In this document: positions 26,964-63,932 of the stretch, one piece after another
How the letters are laid out: each line of letters opens with the position of its first letter
How positions within the stretch are numbered: position 1 is the stretch's first letter
Origin: a virus
IMG/VR virus record: IMGVR_UViG_3300043392_000054
Span: 96,001-160,000 of that record
Direction: 5' to 3' (one strand)
DNA: 64,000 nucleotides
Made by a program: the position numbers and the translations under genes
Notes under the pieces: model-generated
The model's database searches: none
What the model saw: only the letters and a program-made list of their open reading frames with translations
Told to the model about the DNA's origin: nothing

Positions 26964-26997
26964 TATTTTTTTATATCAATTATTTTAGTTATATTTG
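26964..26997 (+). promoter_or_regulatory. Bacteroidota sigma70-type promoter
   Basis: TATATTTG at 26990-97. Confidence 0.6.
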
Positions 26998-46639: not shown

Positions 46640-46710
46640 GTTCTTATAGTGAAAAGGTATCACGTCTGACTGTTAATCAGTTATTATTGGTTCGAATCCA
46701 ATTAGGAACG
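46640..46710 (+). tRNA. tRNA-Asn(GTT)
   Basis: GTTCTTA/TAGGAAC, G73; CTGA-CT GTT AA-TCAG. Confidence 0.85.
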
Positions 46711-46737
46711 CAAAAAAATTGAAAATAATTCGCTAAA

Positions 46738-46771
46738 TATTTTTTTTATTCGAGAATTATTAGTAGATTTA
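46738..46771 (+). promoter_or_regulatory. Bacteroidota sigma70-type promoter of tRNA operon
   Basis: TAGATTTA at 46764-71. Confidence 0.65.
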
Positions 46772-46785
46772 CATAACTTAAAACA

Positions 46786-46800
46786 GTTCTTTGACATATT
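46786..46800 (+). promoter_or_regulatory. boxA-like antitermination element
   Basis: GTTCTTTGACATATT; repeated at 47372 and 53179. Confidence 0.6.
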
Positions 46801-46810
46801 GGTAAAAGTT

Positions 46811-46891
46811 GCCCGGGTGATGGAATGGTAGACATAACGGTCTTAGAAACCGTGGTCGAAAGACGTGAGAGTTCGAGTCTCTCCCTGGGTA
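46811..46891 (+). tRNA. tRNA-Leu(TAG)
   Basis: GCCCGGG/CCTGGGT; ACGGT-CT TAG AA-ACCGT. Confidence 0.95.
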
Positions 46892-46898
46892 CAAATAA

Positions 46899-46968
46899 GT
46901 ACGAGTTGGTCGTGGCGGCCAGCAGGTCTGCAAAATCTGCGGAGTCAGTTCGATTCTGACCTTGTACT
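46899..46968 (+). tRNA. tRNA-Cys(GCA)
   Basis: GTACGAG/CTTGTAC, U73; CAGGT-CT GCA AA-ATCTG; short D-loop. Confidence 0.85.
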
Positions 46969-47049
46969 CTACATCCTGTCTCCACAGACACACACATCCG
47001 GGAGATGAGCAGGATTACGTCGAATAAAGGAGAGGAATAAGACGATTCT

Positions 47050-47125
47050 GGACCAGTAGCTCAGCTGGTAGAGCACTAGACTGAAGATCTAGGTGTCGCA
47101 GGTTCGAATCCTGCCTGGTCCACCA
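47050..47125 (+). tRNA. tRNA-Phe(GAA)
   Basis: GGACCAG/CTGGTCC; CTAGA-CT GAA GA-TCTAG; CCA encoded. Confidence 0.97.
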
Positions 47126-47128
47126 TAT

Positions 47129-47203
47129 TGCGGGATGCGTAGAAAATGGTTATCTCATCGGTCTCATAAGCCGAGGTTCCGGGTTCGAGTCCCGGTCCCG
47201 CAA
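47129..47203 (+). tRNA. tRNA-Met(CAT), initiator-like
   Basis: TGCGGGA/TCCCGCA; TCGGT-CT CAT AA-GCCGA. Confidence 0.9.
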
Positions 47204-47209
47204 CAACAT

Positions 47210-47282
47210 AGAGTAGTATATCAATGGCTAGATTACACGTTTTGGGTGCGTGAGGTTGCAGGTTCGAGTCCTGCCTACTCTA
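47210..47282 (+). tRNA. tRNA-Pro(TGG)
   Basis: AGAGTAG/CTACTCT; CACGT-TT TGG GT-GCGTG. Confidence 0.9.
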
Positions 47283-47316
47283 CTTAAAAAAAATAATTTA
47301 AAAATAATTAGCAAAA

Positions 47317-47350
47317 TATTTTTTTATATCAAGAATTATAGTTATATTTA
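47317..47350 (+). promoter_or_regulatory. Bacteroidota sigma70-type promoter of tRNA operon
   Basis: TATATTTA at 47343-50. Confidence 0.65.
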
Positions 47351-47371
47351 CATAAGAATTTAAATAAGAGA

Positions 47372-47386
47372 GTTCTTTGACATATT
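47372..47386 (+). promoter_or_regulatory. boxA-like element
   Basis: GTTCTTTGACATATT. Confidence 0.6.
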
Positions 47387-47396
47387 AGTAAAATAA

Positions 47397-47469
47397 GCAG
47401 GTATCGTATAATGGCTTATTACTCTAGCCTTCCAAGCTGGAGATGAGAGTTCGATTCTCTCTACCTGCT
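47397..47469 (+). tRNA. tRNA-Gly(TCC)
   Basis: GCAGGTA/TACCTGC, U73; CTAGC-CT TCC AA-GCTGG. Confidence 0.95.
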
Positions 47470-47472
47470 CTA

Positions 47473-47567
47473 AATCATGAGGCCATTGGTTGGCAGCACC
47501 TCCCCAAGGTTGAATCTTAGGATTCTTTATGGCAAAGCTGAAATTGGTTCGAATCCAATCATGATTA
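47473..47567 (+). ncRNA. tRNA-shelled RNA 1 (no canonical anticodon arm)
   Basis: AATCATG/CATGATT acceptor, GCC/GGC D-stem, ATTGG-TTCGAAT-CCAAT T-arm; middle is ACCT/AGGT and GAATC-TTAG-GATTC hairpins. Confidence 0.7.
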
Positions 47568-47573
47568 CAATAT

Positions 47574-47652
47574 TGCGATGCAGGTGCATTGACGGTCTCA
47601 TGAGCCGTATTGGTAGATATACCCAACAGAGGTTCGAGTCCTCTAATCGCAA
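47574..47652 (+). tRNA. atypical tRNA(CAT) with reduced D-arm and long variable arm
   Basis: TGCGAT/ATCGCA; ACGGT-CT CAT GA-GCCGT; TTGG/CCAA variable stem; AGAGG-TTCGAGT-CCTCT. Confidence 0.7.
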
Positions 47653-47701
47653 CAAATCTTAGGAGTAATTAACTTAAGACTGACAGGTTCGAAACTGTCG
47701 A

Positions 47702-47774
47702 TTGATTATGGTGTAAAGGCGCACAGAGACCGTAATTGGAGCTCAGGATTAAGGTTCGAATCCTTATTAATCAG
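47702..47774 (+). ncRNA. tRNA-shelled RNA 2 / degenerate tRNA
   Basis: TGATTA/TAATCA acceptor, GTG/CAC D-stem, TAAGG-TTCGAAT-CCTTA; anticodon arm does not pair canonically. Confidence 0.55.
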
Positions 47775-47780
47775 CAATAT

Positions 47781-47852
47781 TGAGTATTAGCTCAGCGGTA
47801 GAGCTCTCGACTGTTAATCGAGCGGTCCTAGGTTCGAATCCTAGATACTCAG
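47781..47852 (+). tRNA. tRNA-Asn(GTT)
   Basis: TGAGTAT/ATACTCA, G73; CTCGA-CT GTT AA-TCGAG. Confidence 0.97.
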
Positions 47853-47857
47853 CAATG

Positions 47858-47924
47858 TATTTAACGCTCCAACTTAGGTTGGTAAGCATCCGATAGTAAC
47901 CTCGGACGGGCAATGTGTTAAATA
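47858..47924 (+). ncRNA. orphan structured RNA
   Basis: TATTTAAC/GTTAAATA closing stem; CCAAC-TTAG-GTTGG and TCCGA/TCGGA hairpins. Confidence 0.55.
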
Positions 47925-47949
47925 AGCGGTAAGGAAAAGACGAAAATAT

Positions 47950-48073
47950 TGTCAAGAGGCGAGAGGAACACGCCCCGAAACATTGATTCAAAACTTTCTG
48001 ACAGAAGAACGGAGTCTCTGCTTTATCAATGTGCTGATGGAGACTATCACTGGTTCGAATCCAGTATTGACAA
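47950..48073 (+). ncRNA. tRNA-shelled RNA 3 with pseudoknot insert
   Basis: TGTCAA/TTGACA acceptor, GCG/CGC D-stem, ACTGG-TTCGAAT-CCAGT; insert ACATTGAT/ATCAATGT crossed by AGTCTC/GAGACT. Confidence 0.7.
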
Positions 48074-48074
48074 C

Positions 48075-48258
48075 TAAAACAACTAACTGATTAACACTAA
48101 ATAGTAACACTATCGGCAGTACGATTCTGCACTAGAAATTGGATTTGATGTGTTATCTCACAGTCTAAGATGTGAATAGTTTAGGTTAATGTAAACATAA
48201 AGTAGCTTATGGCCAAATGTAAAGTGTTTATCCACTTAGAAGGCAGTTAGTTGTTTTA
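48075..48258 (+). ncRNA. ~185-nt orphan structured RNA
   Basis: 15-bp terminal stem TAAAACAACTAACTG/CAGTTAGTTGTTTTA with several internal helices. Confidence 0.65.
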
Positions 48259-48264
48259 AAATAT

Positions 48265-48357
48265 AGTCAGGTGACGGAATGGTAGACGTATTTGGGTTCT
48301 CTGCCCGATACCTTTGTAAAGGCAAAAAGCTTACAGGTTCGAATCCTGTCCTGACTA
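48265..48357 (+). ncRNA. tRNA-shelled RNA 4 (AGTCAGG family; possible CTC loop)
   Basis: AGTCAGG/CCTGACT-A; Leu-type D-arm; TTGGG-TTCTCTG-CCCGA; ACAGG-TTCGAAT-CCTGT. Confidence 0.7.
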
Positions 48358-48371
48358 CAATATTAAAATAC

Positions 48372-48539
48372 GGTCAAGTAGCGGAATGTTTGCACTAGAG
48401 GTTTATTTCTGATGGTGTTGACTTGGTTAAACGCTAAGTAGTAAAGCTAACTACAGACAAAGCTGTGACGGACCCTGAAGTACAAAGGGTTGAAGTAGAA
48501 GATTACGCACGGTTATAGGTTCGAATCCTGTCTTGACCA
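48372..48539 (+). ncRNA. tRNA-shelled RNA 5 (168 nt; inserts in D-loop and anticodon region)
   Basis: GGTCAAG/CTTGACC-A; TAGCGGAATG..TGGTTAAACGCT split D-arm; ATAGG-TTCGAAT-CCTGT. Confidence 0.7.
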
Positions 48540-48612
48540 CAAGGAGTTCCCAATCTCAAGTGCTGGTTAACCTTAAAAAGTTATCCGTATGAGCCCATCA
48601 AAATTGGAATTT

Positions 48613-48692
48613 GCCTGTATCGCATAGCGGCAATTGCGGCTGACTGTAAATCAGCTCCTTCGGGTTCAGAGGTTCGAGTCCTTTTGCAGGCA
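48613..48692 (+). tRNA. tRNA-Tyr(GTA)
   Basis: GCCTGTA/TGCAGGC; GCTGA-CT GTA AA-TCAGC. Confidence 0.95.
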
Positions 48693-48749
48693 CGATTAAA
48701 CAAAAATATTTACGTAAGTATAATTAATACAACTATTAAAATTAAAATT

Positions 48750-48968
48750 ATGACATCTAACGAATTCACTTATTGGTTACAAGGTTTTTTTGAAATTTCA
48801 AAAGCTGCTAATGTAAAAGAACTTGATGAAGTGCAAACTCAAATTATCAAAGACCATTTAGAATTAGTTTTTAAAAAAGAAACACCTAATAGAACATGGT
48901 CCGATACGGGTGGAAATAGAGGCACGTGCGGAACTGCGGGAACTGCGGGAATTCCGTTTGGAATGTAA
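48750..48968 (+). CDS. small conserved phage protein inside tRNA cluster
   Basis: MTSNEFTYWLQGFFE..QIIKDHLELVFKK; 9-nt GCGGGAACT repeats at the 3' end. Confidence 0.7.
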   Translation: MTSNEFTYWLQGFFEISKAANVKELDEVQTQIIKDHLELVFKKETPNRTWSDTGGNRGTCGTAGTAGIPFGM

Positions 48969-48979
48969 GATATTAATTT

Positions 48980-49060
48980 GGGAGTATTGAGCAATTGGTT
49001 GGCTCGCCGGTCTGTAAAATCGGTCCTTCGGGCATGTAGGTTCGAGTCCTACTGCTCCCA
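48980..49060 (+). tRNA. tRNA-Tyr(GTA)
   Basis: GGGAGTA/TGCTCCC; CCGGT-CT GTA AA-ATCGG; variable arm. Confidence 0.9.
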
Positions 49061-49065
49061 CTAAA

Positions 49066-49165
49066 GTATTAGTAATTCAGTGGTAAGACTGGCGTCCCCT
49101 CATGGTTAAGGGCCGAAAAGCTGGGAATAAGACGATCGCCGTTGGTTCGAGTCCAACCTAATACT
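49066..49165 (+). ncRNA. tRNA-shelled RNA 6
   Basis: GTATTAG/CTAATAC; D-loop AGTGGTAA; GTTGG-TTCGAGT-CCAAC; insert CGTC/GACG with CCCT/AGGG hairpin. Confidence 0.7.
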
Positions 49166-49171
49166 TTAAAT

Positions 49172-49242
49172 ACGAGTGTGGTGCAATGGTAGCATTCCGG
49201 TCTCCAAAACCGTCGATGGGAGTTCGAATCTCTCCACTCGTG
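49172..49242 (+). tRNA. tRNA-Trp(CCA)
   Basis: ACGAGTG/CACTCGT, G73; CGGT-CT CCA AA-ACCG. Confidence 0.95.
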
Positions 49243-49305
49243 CAAATAGTTTTACAGGTCGTTCTGTCCTTGGGTTCTATAAATCAAAAATCCTAAAAAA
49301 GGCCA

Positions 49306-49379
49306 GGACTCTTAGCTCAGTTGGTTAGAGCACCCGACTCATAATCGGTAGGTCGTAGGTTCAAGCCCTACAGGGTCCA
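49306..49379 (+). tRNA. tRNA-Ile2-like (CAT)
   Basis: GGACTCT/AGGGTCC; CCGA-CT CAT AA-TCGG; body resembles bacterial lysidine-modified Ile2. Confidence 0.85.
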
Positions 49380-49384
49380 CATTT

Positions 49385-49456
49385 GATTCTTTAGGCTAAC
49401 GGATAAACCTCTCGGCTACGAACCGAGGATTGAATGTTCGAATCATTCAGGAATCA
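49385..49456 (+). tRNA. tRNA-Arg(ACG)
   Basis: GATTCTT/AGGAATC; CTCGG-CT ACG AA-CCGAG. Confidence 0.92.
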
Positions 49457-49462
49457 CAATAT

Positions 49463-49536
49463 TGCGATATGGTAGAGATGGTTTCTTACGGTGCTCTCAT
49501 AAGGCACAGACATTGGTTCAAATCCAATTGTCGCAA
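49463..49536 (+). tRNA. tRNA-Met(CAT)
   Basis: TGCGATA/TGTCGCA; GTGCT-CT CAT AA-GGCAC. Confidence 0.85.
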
Positions 49537-49588
49537 CAAAAGTTTTTACGGTGGTTCTGGTTCTTCAAAAACGCTATCACCTCCACCA

Positions 49589-49662
49589 GACTCCGTAGCT
49601 CAGTTGGTTAGAGCACCTCACTTTTAATGAGGGGGTCAATGGTTCGAGTCCATTCGGGGTCA
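49589..49662 (+). tRNA. tRNA-Lys(TTT)
   Basis: GACTCCG/CGGGGTC; CCTCA-CT TTT AA-TGAGG. Confidence 0.97.
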
Positions 49663-49668
49663 CAATAT

Positions 49669-49762
49669 GCTTCATACACAATTCTGCAATCTCTCAGTTA
49701 AAAGCTGTTGCAGACGTAAATGAATAATCCAACATGGTTATTAGTTGTGAACAATATGAAGC
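49669..49762 (+). ncRNA. orphan structured RNA (multi-way junction)
   Basis: GCTTCATA/TATGAAGC, CACAA/TTGTG, TCTGCAA/TTGCAGA and AATAATC/GGTTATT stems. Confidence 0.65.
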
Positions 49763-49767
49763 TCCAT

Positions 49768-49841
49768 GCACCTTTAGCTCAGTTGGTTAGAGCACCGACC
49801 TGATACGTCGGGGGTCGAAGGTTCGAGTCCTCCAAGGTGCA
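49768..49841 (+). tRNA. tRNA-Ile(GAT)
   Basis: GCACCTT/AAGGTGC; CCGAC-CT GAT AC-GTCGG. Confidence 0.95.
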
Positions 49842-49850
49842 CAATTATAT

Positions 49851-49926
49851 GGTGTTTATCGTCTAACGGTTAGGACGCTGGTTTGTGGTACCAGCAATCT
49901 GAGTTCGATTCTCAGTAGACACCCCA
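49851..49926 (+). tRNA. tRNA-His(GTG)
   Basis: G-1:C73; GTGTTTA/TAGACAC; CTGGT-TT GTG GT-ACCAG; CCA encoded. Confidence 0.95.
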
Positions 49927-49928
49927 AT

Positions 49929-50013
49929 GGAAGTTTGTCCGAGTGGCTTATGGTGACACTTTGCTAAAGTGTTGGATGTAATAGTCCCACAGGTTCGAAT
50001 CCTGTAACTTCCT
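49929..50013 (+). tRNA. tRNA-Ser(GCT)
   Basis: GGAAGTT/AACTTCC; ACACT-TT GCT AA-AGTGT; long variable arm; U73. Confidence 0.92.
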
Positions 50014-50037
50014 CAATGACAAAAACAATCGATAAAA

Positions 50038-50071
50038 GATTTTTATTTATTGAAACTTTTAGTTACATTTA
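50038..50071 (+). promoter_or_regulatory. Bacteroidota sigma70-type promoter
   Basis: TACATTTA at 50064-71. Confidence 0.55.
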
Positions 50072-50104
50072 CAGTATATTAATATATACCAAATTTGACT
50101 TATA

Positions 50105-50485
50105 ATGGGAAATAGCCTGAAAAATGAATTTGCAGCATACGAACATGCATTGGCTGTAAAAGAATTAGGGTTTAATTGGAAGTGTTTTGGCTTCTATGAT
50201 AGTCCAACCCTTCAATTAATGCATTGTATAAACTCTGAGCCTTGGATGGGAAATGCAGTTGTTGCAGCACCGCTAAAAAGTCAACTATTTAGATTCTTTC
50301 GGGAGAAGTATAATCAAAATTCATTTATTGAATTAGTTTATCAAGATGGAATAAAATATGATTATGTTTTATATGCAGATAAAGATGAAGAAGTATGCGG
50401 AAATTTTGGAGATGGACCTTTTAATACTTACGAAGAAGCAGAGAATGCTTGTATCGATAAACTTATAGAACTAGCTAAACAATAA
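50105..50485 (+). CDS. hypothetical protein (paralog of 63561..63932)
   Basis: EF..YE.A.A..ELGF, AAPLK, FREKY, YE.AE..IDKLIELAKQ. Confidence 0.7.
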   Translation: MGNSLKNEFAAYEHALAVKELGFNWKCFGFYDSPTLQLMHCINSEPWMGNAVVAAPLKSQLFRFFREKYNQNSFIELVYQDGIKYDYVLYADKDEEVCGNFGDGPFNTYEEAENACIDKLIELAKQ

Positions 50486-50486
50486 A

Positions 50487-50720
50487 ATGAAAACAAGAAT
50501 TCATGTTAATCAACACAATATTCGTTCAAATAAAACAAAGGGTACAGATTTACCAGTTATAACTATTAAACAGGGTAAAAAAAATACTTATTGTAATGAA
50601 GTAGAAATACTTGGTCCTAGTAAAATTATTTATTCAGGCTCAGGTTGTGATACTGCAGCTTTATTAGGTTGTGGTGCTAGAGTAGTGATAGAAACAGAAT
50701 CAGATGTGATAATTAAATAA
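50487..50720 (+). CDS. conserved phage hypothetical protein
   Basis: RIHVNQHNIRSN..LPVITIK..CGARVVIET. Confidence 0.7.
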   Translation: MKTRIHVNQHNIRSNKTKGTDLPVITIKQGKKNTYCNEVEILGPSKIIYSGSGCDTAALLGCGARVVIETESDVIIK

Positions 50721-50895
50721 ACAATAAATTATGAAATGGTTAGATAGAAATATTTTGTATATTACCTTTGGCTTTTTAGCAGCTTGTATTCTTTTTCAAA
50801 TGTGGTATATTCAAAAATTAAAAAGTGAATTAAAGTTGTTTAATCAAAAACAAATTGTTATGCCAAAAAAATAATTTGAAAATAAAGGCTCAAAT

Positions 50896-50929
50896 ATTTT
50901 TTATTGTCACCGGAATTTAGTAGATTTAC
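50896..50929 (+). promoter_or_regulatory. Bacteroidota sigma70-type promoter
   Basis: TTGTCA...TAGATTTA at 50922-29. Confidence 0.65.
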
Positions 50930-50953
50930 AGTATACTAATAAACAATAAGACA

Positions 50954-51184
50954 ATGACTGAAGAACAAATCTACAACGAGCAACAGGAATACAATCGTTA
51001 CCAAGAGTTGATTAATACAAAGGAAATCTTAACTCAAGAAGAGTATGAACTTTGTAAAGCTTGGAATGCTGATGAGGCTTGGAAATATTTAAATGATATT
51101 GGTAATGGTCAATGGTTAAACATCAACGTTTACTCTGAAGTGGATAAAGAAGAGTTTGACCTTAGAAAGGAAATGGGTTTTTAA
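50954..51184 (+). CDS. hypothetical protein
   Basis: 76-aa ORF after promoter. Confidence 0.65.
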   Translation: MTEEQIYNEQQEYNRYQELINTKEILTQEEYELCKAWNADEAWKYLNDIGNGQWLNINVYSEVDKEEFDLRKEMGF

Positions 51185-51225
51185 TTATTGAAACTATATA
51201 AAAATAGTACATATAATATATACAT

Positions 51226-51297
51226 TGCGGGGAGGACAAATGGTAAGTCGTTAGTCTCATAAGCTAAAGAAGGTAGTTCAATTCTACCCCCACGCAA
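51226..51297 (+). tRNA. tRNA-Met(CAT), initiator-like, bulged acceptor stem
   Basis: TGCGGGG/CCC(A)CGCA; TTAGT-CT CAT AA-GCTAA. Confidence 0.8.
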
Positions 51298-51299
51298 CA

Positions 51300-51514
51300 A
51301 TGAGTAAGAGATACTCAGCAGTCTTTAATCCAAGACTCATTTAACAATGGATAGGGTAATGGACCGGACATCCTAACTATATAAAAAGCCGGTCTCATGG
51401 GGATAAAGGAACGGGGACACGGTTCCTTCCCAGTAAGTGTTGACTTTTTAAGCGGTAAGACGCGTTGGGTTTTTGAAAGCAAAAAACTATAAATATCTAC
51501 CCATCTAGAATCTC
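51300..51514 (+). ncRNA. ~210-nt structured RNA with ACUCAGCA motif
   Basis: GAGAT-ACTCAGCA...ATCTC; GACCGG/CCGGTC, AAGGAAC/GTTCCTT and GGGTA/TACCC helices. Confidence 0.5.
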
Positions 51515-51577
51515 AAGGTGGGGAAAGAAGTTCTGAGGTTGGCGAGCTCTTCTATAAAAAAGCAATCCATCCACTAT

Positions 51578-51692
51578 AGTCAGGTGGCGGAATGGTAAAC
51601 GCAGGTTCGGTGGAGCAAAAGAACTCCATACCAGAGTAAGCAATTAGTTTATGACTAACACCTATTTACAGGTTCGAATCCTGTCCTGACTA
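51578..51692 (+). ncRNA. tRNA-shelled RNA 7 (AGTCAGG family)
   Basis: AGTCAGG/CCTGACT-A; TGGCGGAATGGTAAACGC D-arm; AGGT/ACCT-closed insert with GGAG/CTCC and TTAGT/ACTAA hairpins. Confidence 0.75.
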
Positions 51693-51708
51693 CTAAACAA
51701 ATAACATT

Positions 51709-51897
51709 ATGAGAAAAGAAGAAACATTAATTTTAAGCAGAGAAGATATGATTGCAGCTGTAAGTGATAAAGATGTTCAGCATATTAATTGTTCTGACTT
51801 TAAGATTGATAGTAACCTATTTCAAAAAAGTAGTATTGTTTTGTTCATAGACGATAATAATCAATCTAAGATTCTTAAAAACCGATACGGCTTATAG
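51709..51897 (+). CDS. small hypothetical protein flanked by duplicated T-arm/acceptor 3' half
   Basis: 62-aa ORF; stop codon overlaps ATAGG-TTTGAAT-CCTGT-TTTGACTA. Confidence 0.6.
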   Translation: MRKEETLILSREDMIAAVSDKDVQHINCSDFKIDSNLFQKSSIVLFIDDNNQSKILKNRYGL

Positions 51898-51918
51898 GTT
51901 TGAATCCTGTTTTGACTA
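51894..51918 (+). repeat. orphan 3' half of AGTCAGG-family shell
   Basis: Imperfect direct repeat of 51668-51692. Confidence 0.65.
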
Positions 51919-51920
51919 CG

Positions 51921-52056
51921 GTTCTGTGCTGCCTGAACGTACAGAAGGTTTTAAGTGACCTTGCTTAGATACTTAATGACTGATGGAAAGACATCGAATT
52001 CAATAGTACCTGAACAGTTAAATAGAGTGGGTATCCGCACAAAATGCTATTGAATT
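51921..52056 (+). ncRNA. orphan structured region
   Basis: TTCTGT/ACAGAA, AAGGT/ACCTT, GATG-GAAAGA-CATC and 10-bp AATTCAATAG/CTATTGAATT stems. Confidence 0.45.
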
Positions 52057-52060
52057 ATTT

Positions 52061-52150
52061 AGTCAGGTGGCGGGAGTCTACACGGAGGCATCTGTGTGTT
52101 GGTTCGAGTCCAACGAGGTGTAAATACAGGTTCGAATCCTGTCCTGACTT
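52061..52150 (+). ncRNA. tRNA-shelled RNA 8 (AGTCAGG family) with a nested second T-arm
   Basis: AGTCAGG/CCTGACT; insert TACAC/GTGTA contains GTTGG-TTCGAGT-CCAAC. Confidence 0.7.
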
Positions 52151-52153
52151 CAA

Positions 52154-52244
52154 AATAATTAGAGAGAATGTGGGTTCGAATCCCACCTGGGCTGTCCGGT
52201 GAGGAGGGCCCGGTAGTGGAAAGGGACAAAGCACTCTATTTATT
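52154..52244 (+). ncRNA. circularly permuted tRNA-like RNA (YrlA/Y-RNA architecture)
   Basis: Terminal stem AATAATTAGAG/CTCTATTTATT; T-arm GTGGG-TTCGAAT-CCCAC; loop-closed acceptor CTGGGCT/GGCCCGG; TA + D-like GG loop. Confidence 0.6.
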
Positions 52245-52263
52245 AAAGTATTGTAATAAACAT

Positions 52264-52350
52264 AGTCGGGTGACGGAGAGGAAACGCATGGTAAGACGCG
52301 TAATTACTTACACGGCTCACCACACACAGGTTCGAATCCTGTCCTGACTA
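52264..52350 (+). ncRNA. tRNA-shelled RNA 9 (AGTCAGG family)
   Basis: AGTCGGG/CCTGACT-A; TGGT/ACCA-closed insert with GTAAG/CTTAC hairpin. Confidence 0.7.
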
Positions 52351-52545
52351 CAATGTATCAAATGTGCAGTGAAAATTAGTGTAGGCATACATTGATGAGG
52401 TGGGTTCGATTCCCGTTTAATAATTCCTAACTATGGAGGAAGCCAAGTAGCTGAGAACACATTATAGCCGGAATGGGTTGTGCACCTTGTCTAAGAGACC
52501 CTAATAGTTCCTAATAGGTCGGTATGGAACTGATACATAGTAATA

Positions 52546-52680
52546 TAGGTTGATTGGGGAATGGTTATGTCGATAGTTCGAGAGTGAATGCTGACTGACA
52601 TAATCGGAGTTTAGAAGTATTCACCATAGTAAAGCCAATCATAAAAGTAGATGTCCACTGAACCATCTTCTACTTTCCTA
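52546..52680 (+). ncRNA. orphan pseudoknotted RNA
   Basis: TGATTGG/CCAATCA; GGTTATGTC/GACATAATC crossed by GTGAATGCT/AGTATTCAC; AAAGTAGA/TCTACTTT. Confidence 0.6.
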
Positions 52681-52685
52681 ATAAA

Positions 52686-52804
52686 TAAGAGGCGGTGAAA
52701 GCTGTAATGATGAGCTTACGAGGTTAAGGTTTGAAAAAGGGTTAATAGTACGACTTAAAGCCTGCACTCATCATCAGTAACCCTGAAAGACCCGTAGCCT
52801 CTTA
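52686..52804 (+). ncRNA. orphan structured RNA
   Basis: TAAGAGGC/GCCTCTTA and ATGATGAG/CTCATCAT stems, GAAA loops. Confidence 0.6.
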
Positions 52805-52807
52805 ATT

Positions 52808-52880
52808 GCTTCCATAGCTCAGTTGGTAGAGCAGCTGATTTGTAATCAGCAGGTCGTTGGTTCGAACCCGACTGGAAGCT
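52808..52880 (+). tRNA. tRNA-Thr(TGT)
   Basis: GCTTCCA/TGGAAGC; GCTGA-TT TGT AA-TCAGC. Confidence 0.97.
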
Positions 52881-52883
52881 CGC

Positions 52884-52944
52884 TGGATTATTGAATTGAA
52901 TGATACGAGCCCCGAAAGTTCGAAATGAGTCATTCGATAATCCA
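52884..52944 (+). ncRNA. orphan hairpin RNA
   Basis: TGGATTAT/ATAATCCA plus GAATGA/TCATTC. Confidence 0.5.
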
Positions 52945-52948
52945 AATT

Positions 52949-53087
52949 GATTCTATAGTTGTTTAGGTCGCTCCGAAAACAACGAGTGGGTTAATGATGG
53001 TTTAATATTACTGTCCAATATTCTAGATAAAGTGATAAGTGATTAAACAAGTAATTAACAAGATGGGTTCGATTCCCATTAGAATCG
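52949..53087 (+). ncRNA. tRNA-shelled RNA 10 (139 nt)
   Basis: GATTCTA/TAGAATC-G; 7-bp D-stem GTTGTTT/AAACAAC; ATGGG-TTCGATT-CCCAT; AT-rich nested insert. Confidence 0.65.
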
Positions 53088-53092
53088 CATTT

Positions 53093-53166
53093 GGTTCGTT
53101 AGTAGAGTTGGTTACAATGTCGCCCTGTCACGGCGAAGGTCACGGGTTCGAGTCCCGTACGAACCG
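53093..53166 (+). tRNA. tRNA-Asp(GTC)
   Basis: GGTTCGT/ACGAACC, G73; TCGCC-CT GTC AC-GGCGA. Confidence 0.97.
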
Positions 53167-53167
53167 C

Positions 53168-53555
53168 ATTACATTATCGTTCTTTGACATATAGGAGAAA
53201 ACAAATTATGGATATACTATCATTCGTTTTAGGGATTGCTGTTGTCGTGGTTATTGGATTATCAATAGTTGCGGTTATTGCATTTGTTAAGGCAAAGAAA
53301 ATAGAAAAACAATTAGAAAACGTAGAATCTCATATTTTCAGAATATTGCAATCTGAAATATCAGATACACATCTAAAAATTGATGAAGTTGAAAAAGGAA
53401 CTCATCAGTTAATTGATGAAGTTGAAAAAGGAACTCATCAAAGAATAGATGAATTAGAAAACAACGTCTTTTCTCAAATGGATTCGAGATTAGATAAACT
53501 AGAAAACAAATTAACAACTAAAAAATAAAAATTAGTTGAAGAACGATAATGTAAT
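53168..53555. repeat. 17-bp perfect inverted repeat enclosing an ORF
   Basis: ATTACATTATCGTTCTT (53168-84) / AAGAACGATAATGTAAT (53539-55); overlaps boxA-like GTTCTTTGACAT. Confidence 0.8.
53208..53528 (+). CDS. membrane-anchored coiled-coil protein
   Basis: N-terminal TM; 33-nt tandem duplication (IDEVEKGTHQ x2). Confidence 0.7.
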   Translation: MDILSFVLGIAVVVVIGLSIVAVIAFVKAKKIEKQLENVESHIFRILQSEISDTHLKIDEVEKGTHQLIDEVEKGTHQRIDELENNVFSQMDSRLDKLENKLTTKK

Positions 53556-53558
53556 TTT

Positions 53559-53630
53559 GGCCCTATCGACAAGCGGTTAAGTCACGTCTCTTTCTAAGAT
53601 GAGTCACGGGTTCGAATCCCGTTGGGGCTA
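53559..53630 (+). tRNA. tRNA-Glu(TTC), U at position 37
   Basis: GGCCCTA/TGGGGCT; CGTCT-CT TTC TA-AGATG. Confidence 0.85.
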
Positions 53631-53638
53631 CTTTAAAT

Positions 53639-53709
53639 TATTCCATGGTGTAACGGTAACACTACTGTTTTTGGTGCAGTCGTTGGAGGTTCGAATCCTT
53701 CTGGAATAA
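53639..53709 (+). tRNA. tRNA-Gln(TTG)
   Basis: TATTCCA/TGGAATA; ACTGT-TT TTG GT-GCAGT. Confidence 0.93.
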
Positions 53710-53732
53710 CAGCTTAAAACCGCATCGGGTAT

Positions 53733-53813
53733 CGTGAACAAGGGAGGCCTGCAACTTGAAATAAAGACAAATCACGTTAAATCTCTCCATTGAAGGTGCT
53801 ATCGGTGACCTTC
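53733..53813 (+). ncRNA. orphan structured RNA, possible pseudoknot
   Basis: CGTGA/TCACG; CAAG/CTTG loop GGAG can pair with CTCC 53785-88; GAAGGT/ACCTTC. Confidence 0.45.
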
Positions 53814-53818
53814 TAAAT

Positions 53819-53892
53819 AGTGGTATAGCTCAGTTGGTTAGAGCATCGATCTGATACGTCGGGGGTCCCTGGTTCGAGTCCAGGTATCACTA
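53819..53892 (+). tRNA. tRNA-Ile(GAT)
   Basis: AGTGGTA/TATCACT; TCGAT-CT GAT AC-GTCGG. Confidence 0.9.
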
Positions 53893-53907
53893 CTAAATTT
53901 TATCAAT

Positions 53908-54996
53908 ATGAAAAGTAATGAGTTCTTAAAGGCATACTTAAATGCCTATTCACCGGTTGCGCAAGAGGCCGAAGGTCAACAAATATGGGTTGACTATGTA
54001 AAACAATTCACCAATGAAGTTAAGGTAGATGCTTATGGTACTGCGGTTGCTAGAGTTCAAGGTTTTCAACCTATTTTACAACATAGAATGGGAGTGCCAT
54101 ACAAAGTTGTAATTGAAGCACACTGTGATGAGATTGCCTGGATTGTAACTCAAATTGAAAAAGAAGGCTTTATTAGAGTTGCAAGACACGGTGGTTCTGA
54201 TAATATGATTGCTGCTTCTAAAACAGTTTTAATTCACACTCATACAGGACAAAAAGTACCAGGTGTTTTCGGACACCCGGCAATTCATACTAGAAAAACG
54301 GTTACAGAAATGGGACCAGAATATCATGAATTATGGATTGACTTAGGCGTCGAGTCTGATGAAAAGGTAAAAGAACTTGGAGTTGAGGTTGGTAACGTAG
54401 TTACGTTTGATGACCAATTCAGTGAGCTTGGAGACTACTATGTTGGTCGCTCATTAGATAATAAGATTGGTGGTTTTATCATCGCAGAGGCCTTGAGAAG
54501 AATCACAGAGCTAAAAGAAAAGCTACCTTATGACCTATATGTAGTTAACTCGGTACAGGAAGAGGTTGGTTTATATGGTGCAAAGATGATTGCTAAGAGT
54601 TTAAAGGCTGATTTGGCTTTAGTGCATGATGTTTGTCATAATACAAATACACCAAAGATGAATAAGGCAAAGGATTCTGATGTGAAAGGCGGTAAGGGAC
54701 CAACATTAGAATTTACAGCCCAAAATCATAGAATGATTATCTCTAAGTTAAGAGAAGTGGCCGAAAAGACTGAAATCGACCTACAACTACAAGTTGGTAG
54801 TTATGGTAATGACACAATGGCATTCTTTTTAGAGAACACACCAACTGCAATCGTTGCAACTCCATTAAAGTATATGCATTCAACTTGTGAAATGGCTCAT
54901 AAAGAGGATGTAGAAAATTGTATTAAATTATTTGTGAATTTCTTACTCAATATTAAGCCCGAGTGGATAGATACTGTAAAAGGTGAAACATTCTAA
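53908..54996 (+). CDS. M42/M20-family metallo-aminopeptidase
   Basis: EAHCDE, SLDNKIG, QEEVGLYGA, VHDV, GNDT and HSTCE motifs. Confidence 0.9.
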   Translation: MKSNEFLKAYLNAYSPVAQEAEGQQIWVDYVKQFTNEVKVDAYGTAVARVQGFQPILQHRMGVPYKVVIEAHCDEIAWIVTQIEKEGFIRVARHGGSDNMIAASKTVLIHTHTGQKVPGVFGHPAIHTRKTVTEMGPEYHELWIDLGVESDEKVKELGVEVGNVVTFDDQFSELGDYYVGRSLDNKIGGFIIAEALRRITELKEKLPYDLYVVNSVQEEVGLYGAKMIAKSLKADLALVHDVCHNTNTPKMNKAKDSDVKGGKGPTLEFTAQNHRMIISKLREVAEKTEIDLQLQVGSYGNDTMAFFLENTPTAIVATPLKYMHSTCEMAHKEDVENCIKLFVNFLLNIKPEWIDTVKGETF

Positions 54997-55698
54997 GTGA
55001 AATTTCTTATTGCATTTCTATTACTATCATTTAGCATATTCGGGCAGGACACTACTAAACACAAGGCCTCAATTATGCTAAATGGTAGTTTTTCTGATAT
55101 AAATGGGCAATCTCAAATTGCAGCCAATATTAGTAATTCATATTCTATTACTAGAAAACACATAGAAAATTTAGTTCTTGTTAAATATTTATATGCGAAT
55201 GAAAATGGACAAATAATTATTAATGACTTTATTGTTAGAATTCAACCTAGATATTTAAGAAAAGACTGGAGTGCTTTTGCATATCATCAATTTTCAAGTG
55301 TTTTATCTAGAAAGATTAATAATAGAAATGAAATTGCATTAGGAGCTGGGCGTTATTTAATTAAGAAAAAAGATTTCTATTCTACACTATCATACGCTAC
55401 CATTTATGTTAATACTAGATATATTACAGATTTAAATATTACAAGTGTTAGACACTCAACTAGAATTCAAGTAGGTGGTAATATTAAAAGAGTGACATAT
55501 ACAATGGAAGCATTTTATCAACCCTCATTTCAAGACCTAAGTAATATTAACTATACATACGACATAAAGGTATCTGTACCAATTGTAAAAAAACTTGCAT
55601 TTAATATAAATTCATACGGTAATTATGAGTCTTTTAATTTAAAGGGAGTTAGTAGTTCTAATGATATTTTAAGCCTAGGCGTCATTTATAATTACTGA
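54997..55698 (+). CDS. outer-membrane beta-barrel protein (DUF481-like)
   Basis: Signal peptide (GTG start), alternating amphipathic strands, GAGRY, EAFYQP, aromatic C-terminus (GVIYNY). Confidence 0.6.
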   Translation: MKFLIAFLLLSFSIFGQDTTKHKASIMLNGSFSDINGQSQIAANISNSYSITRKHIENLVLVKYLYANENGQIIINDFIVRIQPRYLRKDWSAFAYHQFSSVLSRKINNRNEIALGAGRYLIKKKDFYSTLSYATIYVNTRYITDLNITSVRHSTRIQVGGNIKRVTYTMEAFYQPSFQDLSNINYTYDIKVSVPIVKKLAFNINSYGNYESFNLKGVSSSNDILSLGVIYNY

Positions 55699-55741
55699 TA
55701 TATAATGAAACAATCAATTTAATTATTATATAAATTAAGCA

Positions 55742-56068
55742 ATGGCAAAATGCGTTCATCATATTTGGAATACAACAGATACTGAGCCCTGTTGGCAATG
55801 CGAAGAATTAAAATATAGTGATAGATTAAAAACAATTACTAATATGGCAAAGGAAACTTGTGTAATGTGCGGAGTTGAAACTAAATATGACATTAATGAC
55901 CATGTCGATTTTAGACATGGTTACGTTGAAGGTTTAGGTCAAACTTGTCCTAAATGTTCAGGTCTTCATAATATCAATGAAGTAATGATTGAAATTCCAG
56001 GGGAAATGATTAGAAATACACCTAATAATTATGAATTAGGTGAAAAGGTTAGAAGACTATTAGATTAA
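55742..56068 (+). CDS. Zn-finger hypothetical protein
   Basis: CWQC, CVMC and CPKC motifs. Confidence 0.6.
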   Translation: MAKCVHHIWNTTDTEPCWQCEELKYSDRLKTITNMAKETCVMCGVETKYDINDHVDFRHGYVEGLGQTCPKCSGLHNINEVMIEIPGEMIRNTPNNYELGEKVRRLLD

Positions 56069-56071
56069 ATT

Positions 56072-57331
56072 ATGCTAAATATTAATTTTATTAAACAAAA
56101 TGCAGATTTTGTTAAGGAAAGACTTTTATTCAAAGGATTTAAAGATATTAATCTTGTAGATGACCTAATAGACGCATCTAAAGATAAGCATGCATTACAG
56201 CAAAAAAGTGAATTGATTCAATATGAAATCAATCAAGTTTCAACACAAATCGGTGTTTTATTTAAAAACGGAGAGGATGTTACTAAATTAAAGGCATCTA
56301 TTTCACCACTTAAACAAGATTTAGTAGTTTTAGTAGAAGATATACGTCAACTTGAAGATAAAATACAAAATATTTTATATCAATTACCAAATCTACCTAA
56401 TGAAGAGGTTCCTTATGGTGAAAGTGCTGAACAAAATGAAGTAGTGTACCAAGAAGTAGTTAATACAGAAAAAGCTCCTTTAGCACAATATGATTTAATT
56501 GAAAAATATAATTTAGTTAATTTTGAATTAGGTTCTAAAATTACAGGTCGTGGATTTCCAGTTTTTATTGGAGATGGTGCAAAATTACAAAGAGCATTAA
56601 CCCAATACTTTTTAGATTTTAATACTAATGCAGGTTATTTAGAATACATTCCGCCATTTATGGTAAATGAAGACTCAGCTTTAGCAACTGGTCAATTACC
56701 TGATAAAGATGGACAGATGTACTATATGGAAAAAGATGAACTTTATCTAATTCCAACTGCTGAGGTACCTGTAACAAATGTTTATCGAGATACTATTATT
56801 AAAGAGTCAGATTTACCAATTAAAATGACAGCACATTCTCCTTGTTTTAGAAGAGAAGCTGGTAGTTTTGGTAAAGAAGTTAGAGGATTGAATAGAGTAC
56901 ATCAATTTGAAAAGGTTGAAATCATTCAGATTGCGCATCCTGAAAAGAGTGAAACTGCATTAAATGAAATGGTTGAGCATGTTAAAAATTTGTTAGAATC
57001 TCTAGAATTACCATATAGAATTTTAAAATTGTGTAGCCATGATATGAGTTTTACCTCAGCTATTACTTATGATTTTGAAGTTTGGAGCCCAGGTCAACAA
57101 ATGTGGTTAGAAGTAAGTTCAGTTTCTAATTTCAATACATATCAAACGCATAGAATGAAATGTAGATTTAAAGACCAGAATGGTAAAATGCAAAATCCGC
57201 ATTCTTTAAATGGTAGTGCATTAGCTTTACCAAGAATTTATGCAGCTTTAATTGAAACATTCCAAACAGAAAGGGGTATAAAGATACCAGAGGTGTTAAA
57301 GCCTTATTTTGGAAAAGATTATATAGAGTAA
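56072..57331 (+). CDS. serS: seryl-tRNA synthetase
   Basis: N-terminal coiled coil, LPNLP, GQLP, LIPTAEVP, CFRREAG, RVHQFEKVE, EVSSVSN and LNGSALA motifs. Confidence 0.97.
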   Translation: MLNINFIKQNADFVKERLLFKGFKDINLVDDLIDASKDKHALQQKSELIQYEINQVSTQIGVLFKNGEDVTKLKASISPLKQDLVVLVEDIRQLEDKIQNILYQLPNLPNEEVPYGESAEQNEVVYQEVVNTEKAPLAQYDLIEKYNLVNFELGSKITGRGFPVFIGDGAKLQRALTQYFLDFNTNAGYLEYIPPFMVNEDSALATGQLPDKDGQMYYMEKDELYLIPTAEVPVTNVYRDTIIKESDLPIKMTAHSPCFRREAGSFGKEVRGLNRVHQFEKVEIIQIAHPEKSETALNEMVEHVKNLLESLELPYRILKLCSHDMSFTSAITYDFEVWSPGQQMWLEVSSVSNFNTYQTHRMKCRFKDQNGKMQNPHSLNGSALALPRIYAALIETFQTERGIKIPEVLKPYFGKDYIE

Positions 57332-57334
57332 CAT

Positions 57335-57493
57335 TGTAGTGTGGCGAAATGCGTACGCTCGGCAGACGCACCCTCCTGTCTCGGGGGTGAGGAGTTCAAA
57401 ATAAAGTAAGGATATCGGGGTAGACCACCAGCTTGCAAGCGCTATTGTCCTTTACCTAATTGCCTCGTGGTGGTTCGACTCCACCCACTACAG
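57335..57493 (+). ncRNA. giant tRNA-like RNA (GTC anticodon, ~80-nt variable arm, G73) directly after serS
   Basis: TGTAGTG/CACTACA-G; Leu-type D-arm with GCGT/ACGC insert; CCCTC-CT GTC TC-GGGGG; GGTGG-TTCGACT-CCACC. Confidence 0.75.
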
Positions 57494-57514
57494 CTATAAA
57501 AAAACTAAGTAGAA

Positions 57515-58033
57515 ATGAATTTTATTATTAGAATTGGTAAACCAGGTCTTGATTTAATTAAAGAATTTGAATCCCTACAGTTAAAACCATATCTATGCCC
57601 AGCCGGTGTTCCTACTATTGGATACGGAAGCACTTATTACGAGGATGGAAAAACAGTAACTTTGAAAGATAAAGAAATTACTGCTAAAAGAGCTGAAGAA
57701 TTATTAATGAATACTTTAGCAATGTATGAAAAAACAGTTGCAACATTTGTACAAACTACTATTAATGGCCACCAATTTGATGCTTTAGTATCTTTTTGTT
57801 TTAATGTCGGTGTTTCTGCTTTCAAAAATAGTACATTACTTAAAAAGGTTAACTCTATACCAAATGACCCGTCTATTGAATTTGAATTCTTAAAGTGGTG
57901 TAAAGCCGATGGTGCCAATAATGGTATAGACGATGATAATGACGGACAGATTGATGAAAAGGGAGAAAAGAGAATTCTTAAAGGTCTACTAAAAAGAAGA
58001 CAAGCTGAGGCTAAATTATATTTCTCTAAATAA
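57515..58033 (+). CDS. GH24 lysozyme / endolysin
   Basis: IKEFESL..Y.CPAGVPTIGYG, QFDALVSFCFNVG and GLLKRRQAE motifs. Confidence 0.92.
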   Translation: MNFIIRIGKPGLDLIKEFESLQLKPYLCPAGVPTIGYGSTYYEDGKTVTLKDKEITAKRAEELLMNTLAMYEKTVATFVQTTINGHQFDALVSFCFNVGVSAFKNSTLLKKVNSIPNDPSIEFEFLKWCKADGANNGIDDDNDGQIDEKGEKRILKGLLKRRQAEAKLYFSK

Positions 58034-63560: not shown

Positions 63561-63932
63561 ATGATGGAAAAAGAATTTGTTACTTATGAGCAAGCTGCAG
63601 CCTTAAGAGATTTAGGATTTAATGAGACGTGTTTGGGTTGTTATATTTATGAAGTTGAAACATTAACTTGGAAGTTAAATTATGCAATGTATGACAACGA
63701 TATTAGATGGGTTATAGCTGCCCCACTTAAACAACAAACATTCAAGTGGTTTCGGGAGAAGTATGATGTAGACTTTTACATTACTCGTAGCTTACCAAAT
63801 GTAATAAGTAAAGATATTTATCACATTGTATTGAATGATATATGGATTCCTAATGATTCTCATAGAAATTATGAAGATGCAGAAAATAGGTTAATTGATA
63901 ATTTGATAGAACTAGCTAAACAGAAAAAATAA
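63561..63932 (+). CDS. hypothetical protein (paralog of 50105..50485)
   Basis: Shared motifs along the whole length. Confidence 0.7.
   Translation: MMEKEFVTYEQAAALRDLGFNETCLGCYIYEVETLTWKLNYAMYDNDIRWVIAAPLKQQTFKWFREKYDVDFYITRSLPNVISKDIYHIVLNDIWIPNDSHRNYEDAENRLIDNLIELAKQKK

Follow-up and report, generated by a model that had tools for sequence, protein, structure and literature searches.

Phages commonly carry genes for tRNAs, but the locus described here raises the question of what a phage gains from genes that keep the ends of a tRNA around a middle that is something else. The locus lies in a 64,000-nucleotide (nt) stretch, hereafter the window, comprising bases 96001–160000 of the 182.8-kb uncultured-virus contig IMGVR_UViG_3300043392_000054 (estimated to be 64% complete), in which ARAGORN finds 26 tRNA genes, with an array on the + strand (46640–53893) accounting for 24. 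Within this array and downstream of it stand elements in which the acceptor stem, D-arm-like segment and T-arm of a tRNA (the shell) enclose RNA of other kinds (the insert). Our preferred reading, to which we give a probability of about 0.55, is that these elements would be processed, non-decoding tRNA-derived RNAs whose inserts matter.

tRNA-shelled elements in the phage tRNA array

To locate the elements, we listed all hairpins that combine a 5-bp stem with a 7-nt loop of T-loop type and matched the 7 nt directly 3′ of each to an upstream 7-mer within about 300 nt. A perfect Watson–Crick acceptor partner was present for 11 of the 17 T-arms outside ARAGORN tRNAs, against a chance expectation of ~0.3 (17 × 295/16384); one of the 11, the all-A/T T-arm at 52400, probably found its partner by chance. 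The eleven elements listed in the initial annotation, named here by their first base, were all present on the + strand, each with a 5-bp T-stem, a TTCGA-type loop and the acceptor 3′ strand directly after it. The 6–7-bp acceptor stems claimed for them were borne out, with seven pairs in nine elements (7/7 Watson–Crick in 47473, 48265, 48372, 49066, 51578, 52061, 52949 and 57335, and one G-U among the seven in 52264) and 6/7 in the remaining two (47703 and 47950).

The Rfam tRNA model RF00005 (gathering cut-off 29 bits) missed the longer elements, and the gathering score was reached by 48265 (44.5 bits), 51578 (44.5 bits), 49066 (36.5 bits) and 52264 (30.9 bits). Element 47473 scored 26.1 bits, with 39 nt where a tRNA has 13 nt of anticodon arm, and there was no full-length match for 47703, 47950, 48372, 52061, 52949 or 57335, the match of 48372 being partial, over the 3′ end only (15.3 bits). 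An anticodon arm of tRNA type (5-bp stem, 7-nt loop, U33, purine at 37) was absent from 47473, 47950, 48372, 49066, 51578, 52061, 52264 and 52949, in agreement with the earlier claim that the anticodon region is replaced, but the claim does not extend to 48265 and 57335, which keep an anticodon-type hairpin, though with U at position 37. The extra RNA of 57335 sits instead in the D-loop and variable arm, beside a 7-nt anticodon-like loop with GUC, and 48372 has an additional insert inside its D-loop. The two crossing helices of 47950, a putative pseudoknot, appear legible in its sequence, and the nested T-arm reported within 52061 is present at 52098–52114. This nested T-arm is identical over 17/17 nt to the T-arm of 49066 (49141–49157), as might be expected if a piece of one element had been copied into another.

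Apart from tRNA, no Rfam family was found in the inserts, and scans of the array for sigma-70 promoters and terminators gave nothing above chance level. Given that the shells and the real tRNAs share a strand on which terminator-like sites do not exceed chance, their co-transcription is plausible. The elements, with one addition and one remnant, are as follows.

47473..47567, + strand: element 1, 'class C'; acceptor AATCATG/CATGATT (7/7), short D-arm, two-hairpin insert on a 3-bp stem, T-arm 47543–47559, discriminator A.
47574..47652, + strand: additional element absent from the first list; CAT anticodon-type loop, long variable hairpin, 6/7 acceptor; Rfam tRNA score 25 bits, under the cut-off; insert 98–100% identical in loci L146, L153 and L164.
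47703..47774, + strand: element 2; 6/7 acceptor, D-arm, non-canonical middle, T-arm 47750–47766; labelled tRNA-Ile(aat) by ARAGORN; homolog in locus L146.
47950..48073, + strand: element 3; 6/7 acceptor, D-arm with GG loop, ~75-nt insert, T-arm 48049–48065; the insert has a 94.6% identical copy in locus L082 and part of it occurs in L078.
48265..48357, + strand: element 4; AGTCAGG Leu-type shell, anticodon-like hairpin with loop UUCUCUG, variable-arm hairpin; homologs in L013 and L016, where an A-U pair replaces G-C in the stem of the hairpin, and a further homolog in L136.
48372..48539, + strand: element 5; acceptor GGTCAAG/CTTGACC, which differs from AGTCAGG by two compensated pairs; D-loop insert and ~90-nt insert.
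49066..49165, + strand: element 6; acceptor GTATTAG/CTAATAC, D-arm, ~50-nt insert, T-arm 49141–49157, discriminator T.
51578..51692, + strand: element 7; AGTCAGG shell, ~65-nt insert, 95% identical to one in locus L020.
51886..51912, + strand: orphan degenerate 3′ shell half with T-loop TTTGAAT, after a 62-codon open reading frame (ORF) at 51709–51897; together (51709–51912) they look like what an insertion, or an element since lost, left behind.
52061..52150, + strand: element 8; AGTCAGG shell with the second T-arm, 52098–52114, within its insert.
52264..52350, + strand: element 9; AGTCGGG/CCTGACT shell, a G15:C48 variant with a ~35-nt insert; related insert in L125.
52949..53087, + strand: element 10; acceptor GATTCTA/TAGAATC, 7-bp hairpin at the D position, A/T-rich insert of ~75 nt, T-arm 53063–53079; one weak match only in the homolog search.
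57335..57493, + strand: element 11; complete cloverleaf with a D-loop hairpin insert, a GUC anticodon-like loop and a ~80-nt branched variable arm.

A viral family with one shell and many inserts

Elements 48265, 51578, 52061 and 52264 have in common the acceptor AGTCAGG/CCTGACT (AGTCGGG, with one G-U, in 52264) and one T-arm, and the D-arm typical of tRNA-Leu is kept in the first two and divergent in the last two. With the variant 48372 included, five elements carry this Leu-type shell. Shell loci were gathered by an exact 24-mer of the shell, and counts of shells and inserts come from the matches listed. This 24-nt 3′ shell end occurs in at least 120 viral contigs; the 5′ half of the shell, which was not part of the search, is likewise conserved, and the middles, 2–139 nt long, are mostly unrelated. 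From 105 loci we obtained, after removal of duplicates, 160 distinct inserts of at least 20 nt, which among the matches listed fall into 133 sequence clusters, and the smallest family members (53–70 nt) are nearly bare shells. The architecture was found in 387 shells, as compared with 48 in a reversed-strand control. Contigs carry 1–11 shell copies, almost always on one strand (26 contigs examined whole), and many family members stand singly between protein genes, on the coding strand and distant from tRNAs.

Its occurrence shows that the shell does not come from a host tRNA gene set. When 185,579 prokaryotic species were represented by one genome each, the 24-mer was present in 14 contigs only, all of them from metagenome bins of scattered taxonomy (about five of Bacteroidota) and all with inserts. 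A blastn search with element 51578 against 50,697 deposited phage genomes gave no match, and a literature search found no description of a shell-and-insert family, which apparently is large, essentially confined to viral sequence and undescribed. ARAGORN makes a call of any kind for 40 of 174 shells, with scattered anticodons. One insert class (loci L065, L071 and L100) still resembles tRNA-Leu(UAA) and likely represents the ancestor of the shell.

Shells and recurrent inserts are selected as RNA

Anchoring the pairing test on the D-arm core and the T-loop, so that no acceptor pairing was presupposed, we found all seven acceptor positions paired in 195 of 272 candidates. Where acceptors depart from the consensus, 137 two-sided changes stay Watson–Crick and 45 one-sided changes give G-U, with 16 mismatches. 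The tertiary pair 15:48 covaries as well, being A15:U48 in 125 of 173 shells and pairing G15 with C48 in six of seven (Fisher p = 3e-7). Insert classes common to different contigs are 73–100% identical, with 120-nt flanks that are mostly at random-pair identity.

Class C, to which element 47473 belongs, comprises 29 distinct sequences from 52 viral contigs, which between them use six acceptor stems, several T-stems and several D-stems. In its proposed structure 98% of cells are paired and 11 of 26 pairs show double changes, and none of 500 shuffles reached any of these measures. A 14-nt single-stranded insert segment, UCUUUAUGGYAAAG, which lay outside the class C search pattern, is invariant in 29/29 sequences save at one C/U position; because it is invariant while six acceptor stems covary, the class C insert is more constrained than its shell. 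The class of element 57335 (four sequences) shows double changes in 19 of 40 predicted pairs. The compensatory changes, the 15:48 covariation and the retention of inserts across unrelated flanks bear out the initial view that stems which stay paired while the middles vary reflect selection, not decay, and on this comparative evidence the shell and the recurrent inserts are under selection as RNA.

Exchange of inserts between constant ends

An orthologous site in seven related contigs, which lies downstream of the terminase gene with a morphogenesis-module gene on either side, allowed us to follow the fate of one element. Its 150-nt flanks align throughout and are roughly 90% identical by eye, except in contig L065, where the likeness is lost a short way downstream of the element. 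The acceptor 5′ strand and the T-arm with the acceptor 3′ strand are identical, but between them stand five unrelated versions of D-arm plus insert, for a total element length of 89–132 nt. As gradual drift cannot give unrelated middles between matching flanks, the alignment indicates replacement of the D-arm together with the insert, the breakpoints falling within the shell. One insert class also occurs in different shells. Exchange at constant ends would help to keep the shell ends uniform.

Putative maturation signals and a possible leucine identity

The contacts of bacterial RNase P with its substrates include U−1 and C74. The fraction with U at −1 is 0.84 for AGTCAGG shells and 0.68 for the true tRNAs of the same contigs, and the corresponding fractions for C74 are 0.98 and 1.00. 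In shells and true tRNAs alike, A is enriched at −2 and −4 and positions 75–77 are A-rich, and CCA is encoded in 3% of shells and 8% of true tRNAs. Since the flank signals match those of true tRNAs, the simplest reading is that both would have their 5′ and 3′ ends processed in one and the same way and then receive CCA.

The shell may also carry an amino-acid identity. Leucyl-tRNA synthetase (LeuRS) of E. coli needs A73, A15:U48, G18G19, A20a and D/T-loop contacts, the anticodon and variable arm being dispensable, and E. coli tRNA-Leu without anticodon and variable arms is still charged (PMC9976931). AGTCAGG shells have A73 in 92%, A14-A15, U8 in 166 of 173, and G18G19 (A20a was not tabulated). 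As the shell keeps most of the elements that LeuRS requires (A73, A15:U48, G18G19, U8:A14), we tentatively suggest that it could be leucylated, a proposal about which we remain more doubtful than confident.

A model of processed, non-decoding RNAs

Taking these observations together, we propose that each RNA keeps the part recognised by the tRNA machinery, namely the acceptor/T-arm helix, the D/T-loop elbow and the discriminator base, and presents a different RNA module at the position of the anticodon arm, the variable arm or the D-loop. The shell RNAs would be transcribed along with the tRNA array, cut at their 5′ ends by host RNase P, trimmed at their 3′ ends to C74 and finished by a CCA-adding enzyme, and would accumulate as stable RNAs whose specific activity resides in the insert. 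The AGTCAGG shell would derive from a class II tRNA-Leu, and its short constant ends would serve as DNA junctions at which phages swap D-arm plus insert, giving a cassette-like library. A more far-reaching version, which we consider possible but unlikely, is a natural 'RNA display', in which a tRNA-Leu handle, possibly leucylated and bound by EF-Tu, presents hundreds of swappable modules as effectors of host takeover or counter-defence; such modules could be protein decoys, small-molecule sponges or seed regions.

Several observations weigh against a reading in which the inserts matter or limit its reach. Collection by an exact 24-mer inflates the apparent constancy of the shell, the leucine identity rules are those of E. 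coli and may not be those of the hosts, and recent horizontal transfer of cassettes could also leave whole elements conserved where the flanks are unrelated. As a set, the inserts fold no better than shuffled sequences (median z −0.4; 10% below −2) and have no motif in common, and their antisense matches in the phage's own genome are at chance level only, so that they point to no particular function. Nested T-arms occur in 5 of 173 inserts, above shuffles but rare. Because most inserts are singletons, the evidence of selection on inserts concerns the recurrent classes only.

Were the shell alone functional, as an anticodon-less tRNA-Leu mimic directed at a factor that recognises tRNAs (LeuRS, EF-Tu, a tRNA sensor or a toxin that modifies tRNA ends, for instance), the inserts would simply be tolerated where they are exposed to solvent. 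Such an arrangement would suit a shell that is much more constant than its inserts and keeps the LeuRS identity elements and the elbow, inserts that are not unusually structured and sit at three different peripheral sites, and smallest members that are nearly bare; it is nevertheless unlikely in our view, as the recurrent insert classes covary and keep invariant single-stranded segments while their shells vary, and dosage alone would hardly account for genomes with five or more copies, each loaded differently. It is less likely still that the elements punctuate polycistronic phage transcripts through RNase P and 3′ cuts, leaving the excised RNA as a by-product, a role for which plant mitochondrial t-elements offer a precedent (PMC1920247). 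Punctuation needs neither insert nor Leu-type D-arm nor A73 and leaves unexplained the conserved inserts and the adjacent arrays without genes between them (48265/48372 and 52061/52264), even though the flank signals match tRNA processing sites and many members do stand alone between protein genes, on the coding strand and away from tRNAs.

The cassette replacement with breakpoints inside the shell, the occurrence of one insert class in different shells and the UvsX-type recombinase of this phage might instead mean that the constant ends serve mainly in DNA recombination, as the sites used by a mobile cassette system, the RNA being incidental. We hold this to be improbable: a DNA site need not keep base-pairing, the 15:48 pair, U−1 or C74, and no recombinase or other gene is consistently adjacent. 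A reading as intron-interrupted tRNA genes spliced by phage RNA ligases finds two such ligases in the window (21119–22204 and 26995–28098), and the intron mode of ARAGORN proposes introns for 57335 and 52264. These calls are inconsistent, however, with one 490-nt 'intron' that runs across several elements and another of 4 nt; across 173 shells no conserved anticodon-stem halves flank the inserts, and an Rnl1-type ligase, the only ligase family screened, is missing from 22 of 26 carriers, including all seven near-complete ones. Group I introns, for their part, are far larger than the shell inserts, and altogether we regard splicing as very improbable. Least credible of all is neutral drift of decaying tRNA duplicates or insertion remnants. 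Turnover of the array does occur, given the orphan degenerate 3′ half at 51886–51912 and the solitary T-arms at 52170 and 52400, yet decay would not produce compensatory changes, 15:48 covariation, inserts conserved where the surrounding DNA is unrelated, or hundreds of copies whose flank signals are intact.

Candidate partners and genome context

Some of the functions suggested for the elements at the outset involved particular phage proteins. The notion of a scaffold library gains from the compensating stems, the inserts kept across unrelated flanks and the tRNA-like flank signals, but several of the functions listed with it find no support as general explanations. A general role as ligands of a Ro60-like protein is contradicted by the distribution of the DUF2828 protein of this type, found in 1 of 25 other shell carriers and 0 of 7 near-complete ones; no TROVE domain was found in this phage genome. 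Splicing of pre-tRNAs fares no better, as in none of the elements would joined exons restore an anticodon arm, and the T4 Rnl1-type ligase, also considered as a general partner, is present in 4 of 26 carriers and 0 of 7 near-complete ones. Decoys for anticodon nucleases are unlikely where an element lacks an anticodon loop.

A CCA-enzyme-type gene was likewise rejected as a general partner, being present in this phage alone among carriers, and no universal neighbouring protein emerged, the best cluster adjoining 12 of ~115 loci. A family of ~125-aa proteins, represented by 50105–50485 (126 aa), was detected in six of the eight shell-bearing genomes examined, in some cases beside a shell; it was set aside as a partner because it is found in 10 of 183 loci only. 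Since the Ro-like protein, the Rnl1 ligase and the CCA enzyme are not general, the shell family appears to rely on universal host machinery.

The phage carries T4-like replication genes (DNA polymerase, clamp loader, helicase and the UvsX-type recombinase) together with portal and terminase genes, and enzymes of NAD salvage are encoded in the window, as are the two RNA ligases. The gene at 7110–8552 specifies a DUF2828/DUF7788 'RNA-binding protein' with a phrog_850 match, and a nucleotidyltransferase of the CCA-adding-enzyme type is encoded at G000:C1:92719-93129, ~3 kb upstream of the window. The seryl-tRNA synthetase (SerRS) gene occupies 56072–57331, element 57335 begins 3 nt downstream of it, and a lysozyme gene with an A-rich leader follows at 57515–58033. 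This RNA-maintenance set (DUF2828/DUF7788 protein, CCA-type enzyme, two RNA ligases and SerRS) is unusually full, and most other shell carriers are without it. Relatives of the SerRS protein, used as a route to related phages, were not found in viral contigs, and a search for near-identical DNA in deposited phages matched single tRNAs only.

Other candidate RNAs in and near the array

Three non-canonical tRNA-like genes with CAT anticodon loops, at 47129–47203, 47574–47652 and 51227–51297, have unusual D-arms or a long variable arm and occur besides two normal tRNA-Met genes of the window; none of the three was in the initial annotation's list, and the 47129 type was found in 10 other loci. 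The ORF-poor array spacers 51298–51577, 52350–52800 and 47854–47949 contain segments with 75–95% blastn matches in many unrelated viral loci (51298–51357 in seven loci and 51423–51526 in five, for example) and had no match in Rfam; they likely represent further conserved non-coding RNAs without a tRNA shell.

At 52150–52262, a T-arm (52170–52186) is followed by a GC-rich capped stem and then a D-arm-like segment, which is the circularly permuted order of a tRNA module. This segment scored 21.4 bits against the Rfam YrlA model (cut-off 69), and no homolog was found among the fetched loci. A PreQ1-I riboswitch match at 57464–57514 (31.1 bits; cut-off 39) consists of the T-stem of 57335 in another register plus the A-rich ribosome-binding region in the lysozyme leader, and is probably due to chance because the tail motif is not kept in relatives. 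The paralogs at 50105–50485 and 63561–63932 encode small proteins of ~125 aa with weak matches to phrog_12005 and phrog_25117 (function unknown).

Implications for phage tRNA repertoires

Few accessory genes are as common in large phages as those for tRNAs, whose usual interpretation is that they aid codon usage. On our reading, a sizeable share of the 'odd' or 'pseudo' tRNA calls in uncultured phages would belong to a selected class of non-decoding RNAs with a constant handle and a very large stock of exchangeable inserts. Because tRNA finders and Rfam mis-call or miss shell genes, phage tRNA counts and reports of 'suppressor' or 'undetermined' tRNAs need care. Should the RNAs indeed be produced and matured in the predicted way, phage RNA effectors would join the arms race that phage proteins wage with hosts, RNA engineering would gain natural host-processed scaffolds and insert folds, and a function would become testable for T4 species 1 RNA, a puzzle of 50 years' standing. 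A display of RNA modules, if real, would be an RNA equivalent of the 'moron' and anti-defence genes, whose products are proteins.

Comparison with known systems

T4 species 1 RNA (rnaC), like the shells, is encoded in a phage tRNA cluster and ends in a T-arm, CCGGG-UUCGAAU-CCCGG, the strand 3′ of which pairs with the 5′ end of the RNA, and, as in the shells, the tRNA body is replaced, here by two long hairpins. Its function is still unknown (PMC9697503). It differs from the shells in two U-U mismatches in the acceptor-like stem and in that no Leu-type D-arm is seen. T4 species 2 RNA (rnaD) is another stable RNA of the tRNA cluster, but with a fold that has no clear T-arm, and T4 has one copy each of rnaC and rnaD; we know of no family in T4 with one shell, many inserts and cassette exchange. 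On grounds of architecture, T4 species 1 RNA is the closest precedent.

With class II tRNA-Leu (RF00005), the shell shares the D-arm GGCGGAAU(U)GGUAGACGC, U8, A14, A15:U48, G18G19, the T-loop and A73, but most shells lack an anticodon stem-loop and the shell acceptor begins with A1-U72. The Y RNAs of the YrlA type (RF02553) are similarly non-coding RNAs with a tRNA-like module, and some are cut by RNase P and given CCA (PMC4201824). In YrlA, however, a loop caps the acceptor-like stem and both termini of the RNA emerge on the side of the anticodon, whereas the shells end at the acceptor, and elements of the window score 21–23 bits against the Rfam YrlA cut-off of 69. YrlA RNAs are further marked by a stem that binds Ro60 and by a Ro60 gene next to them, and the phage genome has no TROVE domain. 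Transfer-messenger RNA (tmRNA) also places a tRNA-like acceptor/T-arm domain around a large non-tRNA insert; unlike tmRNA, the shells are 70–170 nt rather than ~350 nt long and have neither the G3:U70 of its tRNA-Ala-like domain nor a tag reading frame, and ARAGORN found no tmRNA in the window. GOLLD and ROOL, phage non-coding RNAs of unknown function, lie near tRNA genes (bioRxiv 10.1101/2024.12.08.627333). They differ from the shells in their length (~580–800 nt), their own conserved folds and their lack of a tRNA shell, and Rfam found neither in the window.

The same design has been arrived at by engineering: the man-made tRNA scaffold of Ponchon and Dardel (2007) for recombinant RNA in bacteria reportedly carries its insert in place of the anticodon arm and has tRNA-like processing and stability, and the shell family would be its natural counterpart. 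tRNA-mimic non-coding RNAs are thus a kind already known, and what distinguishes the shell family is its modular layout of one shell with many inserts, together with cassette exchange.

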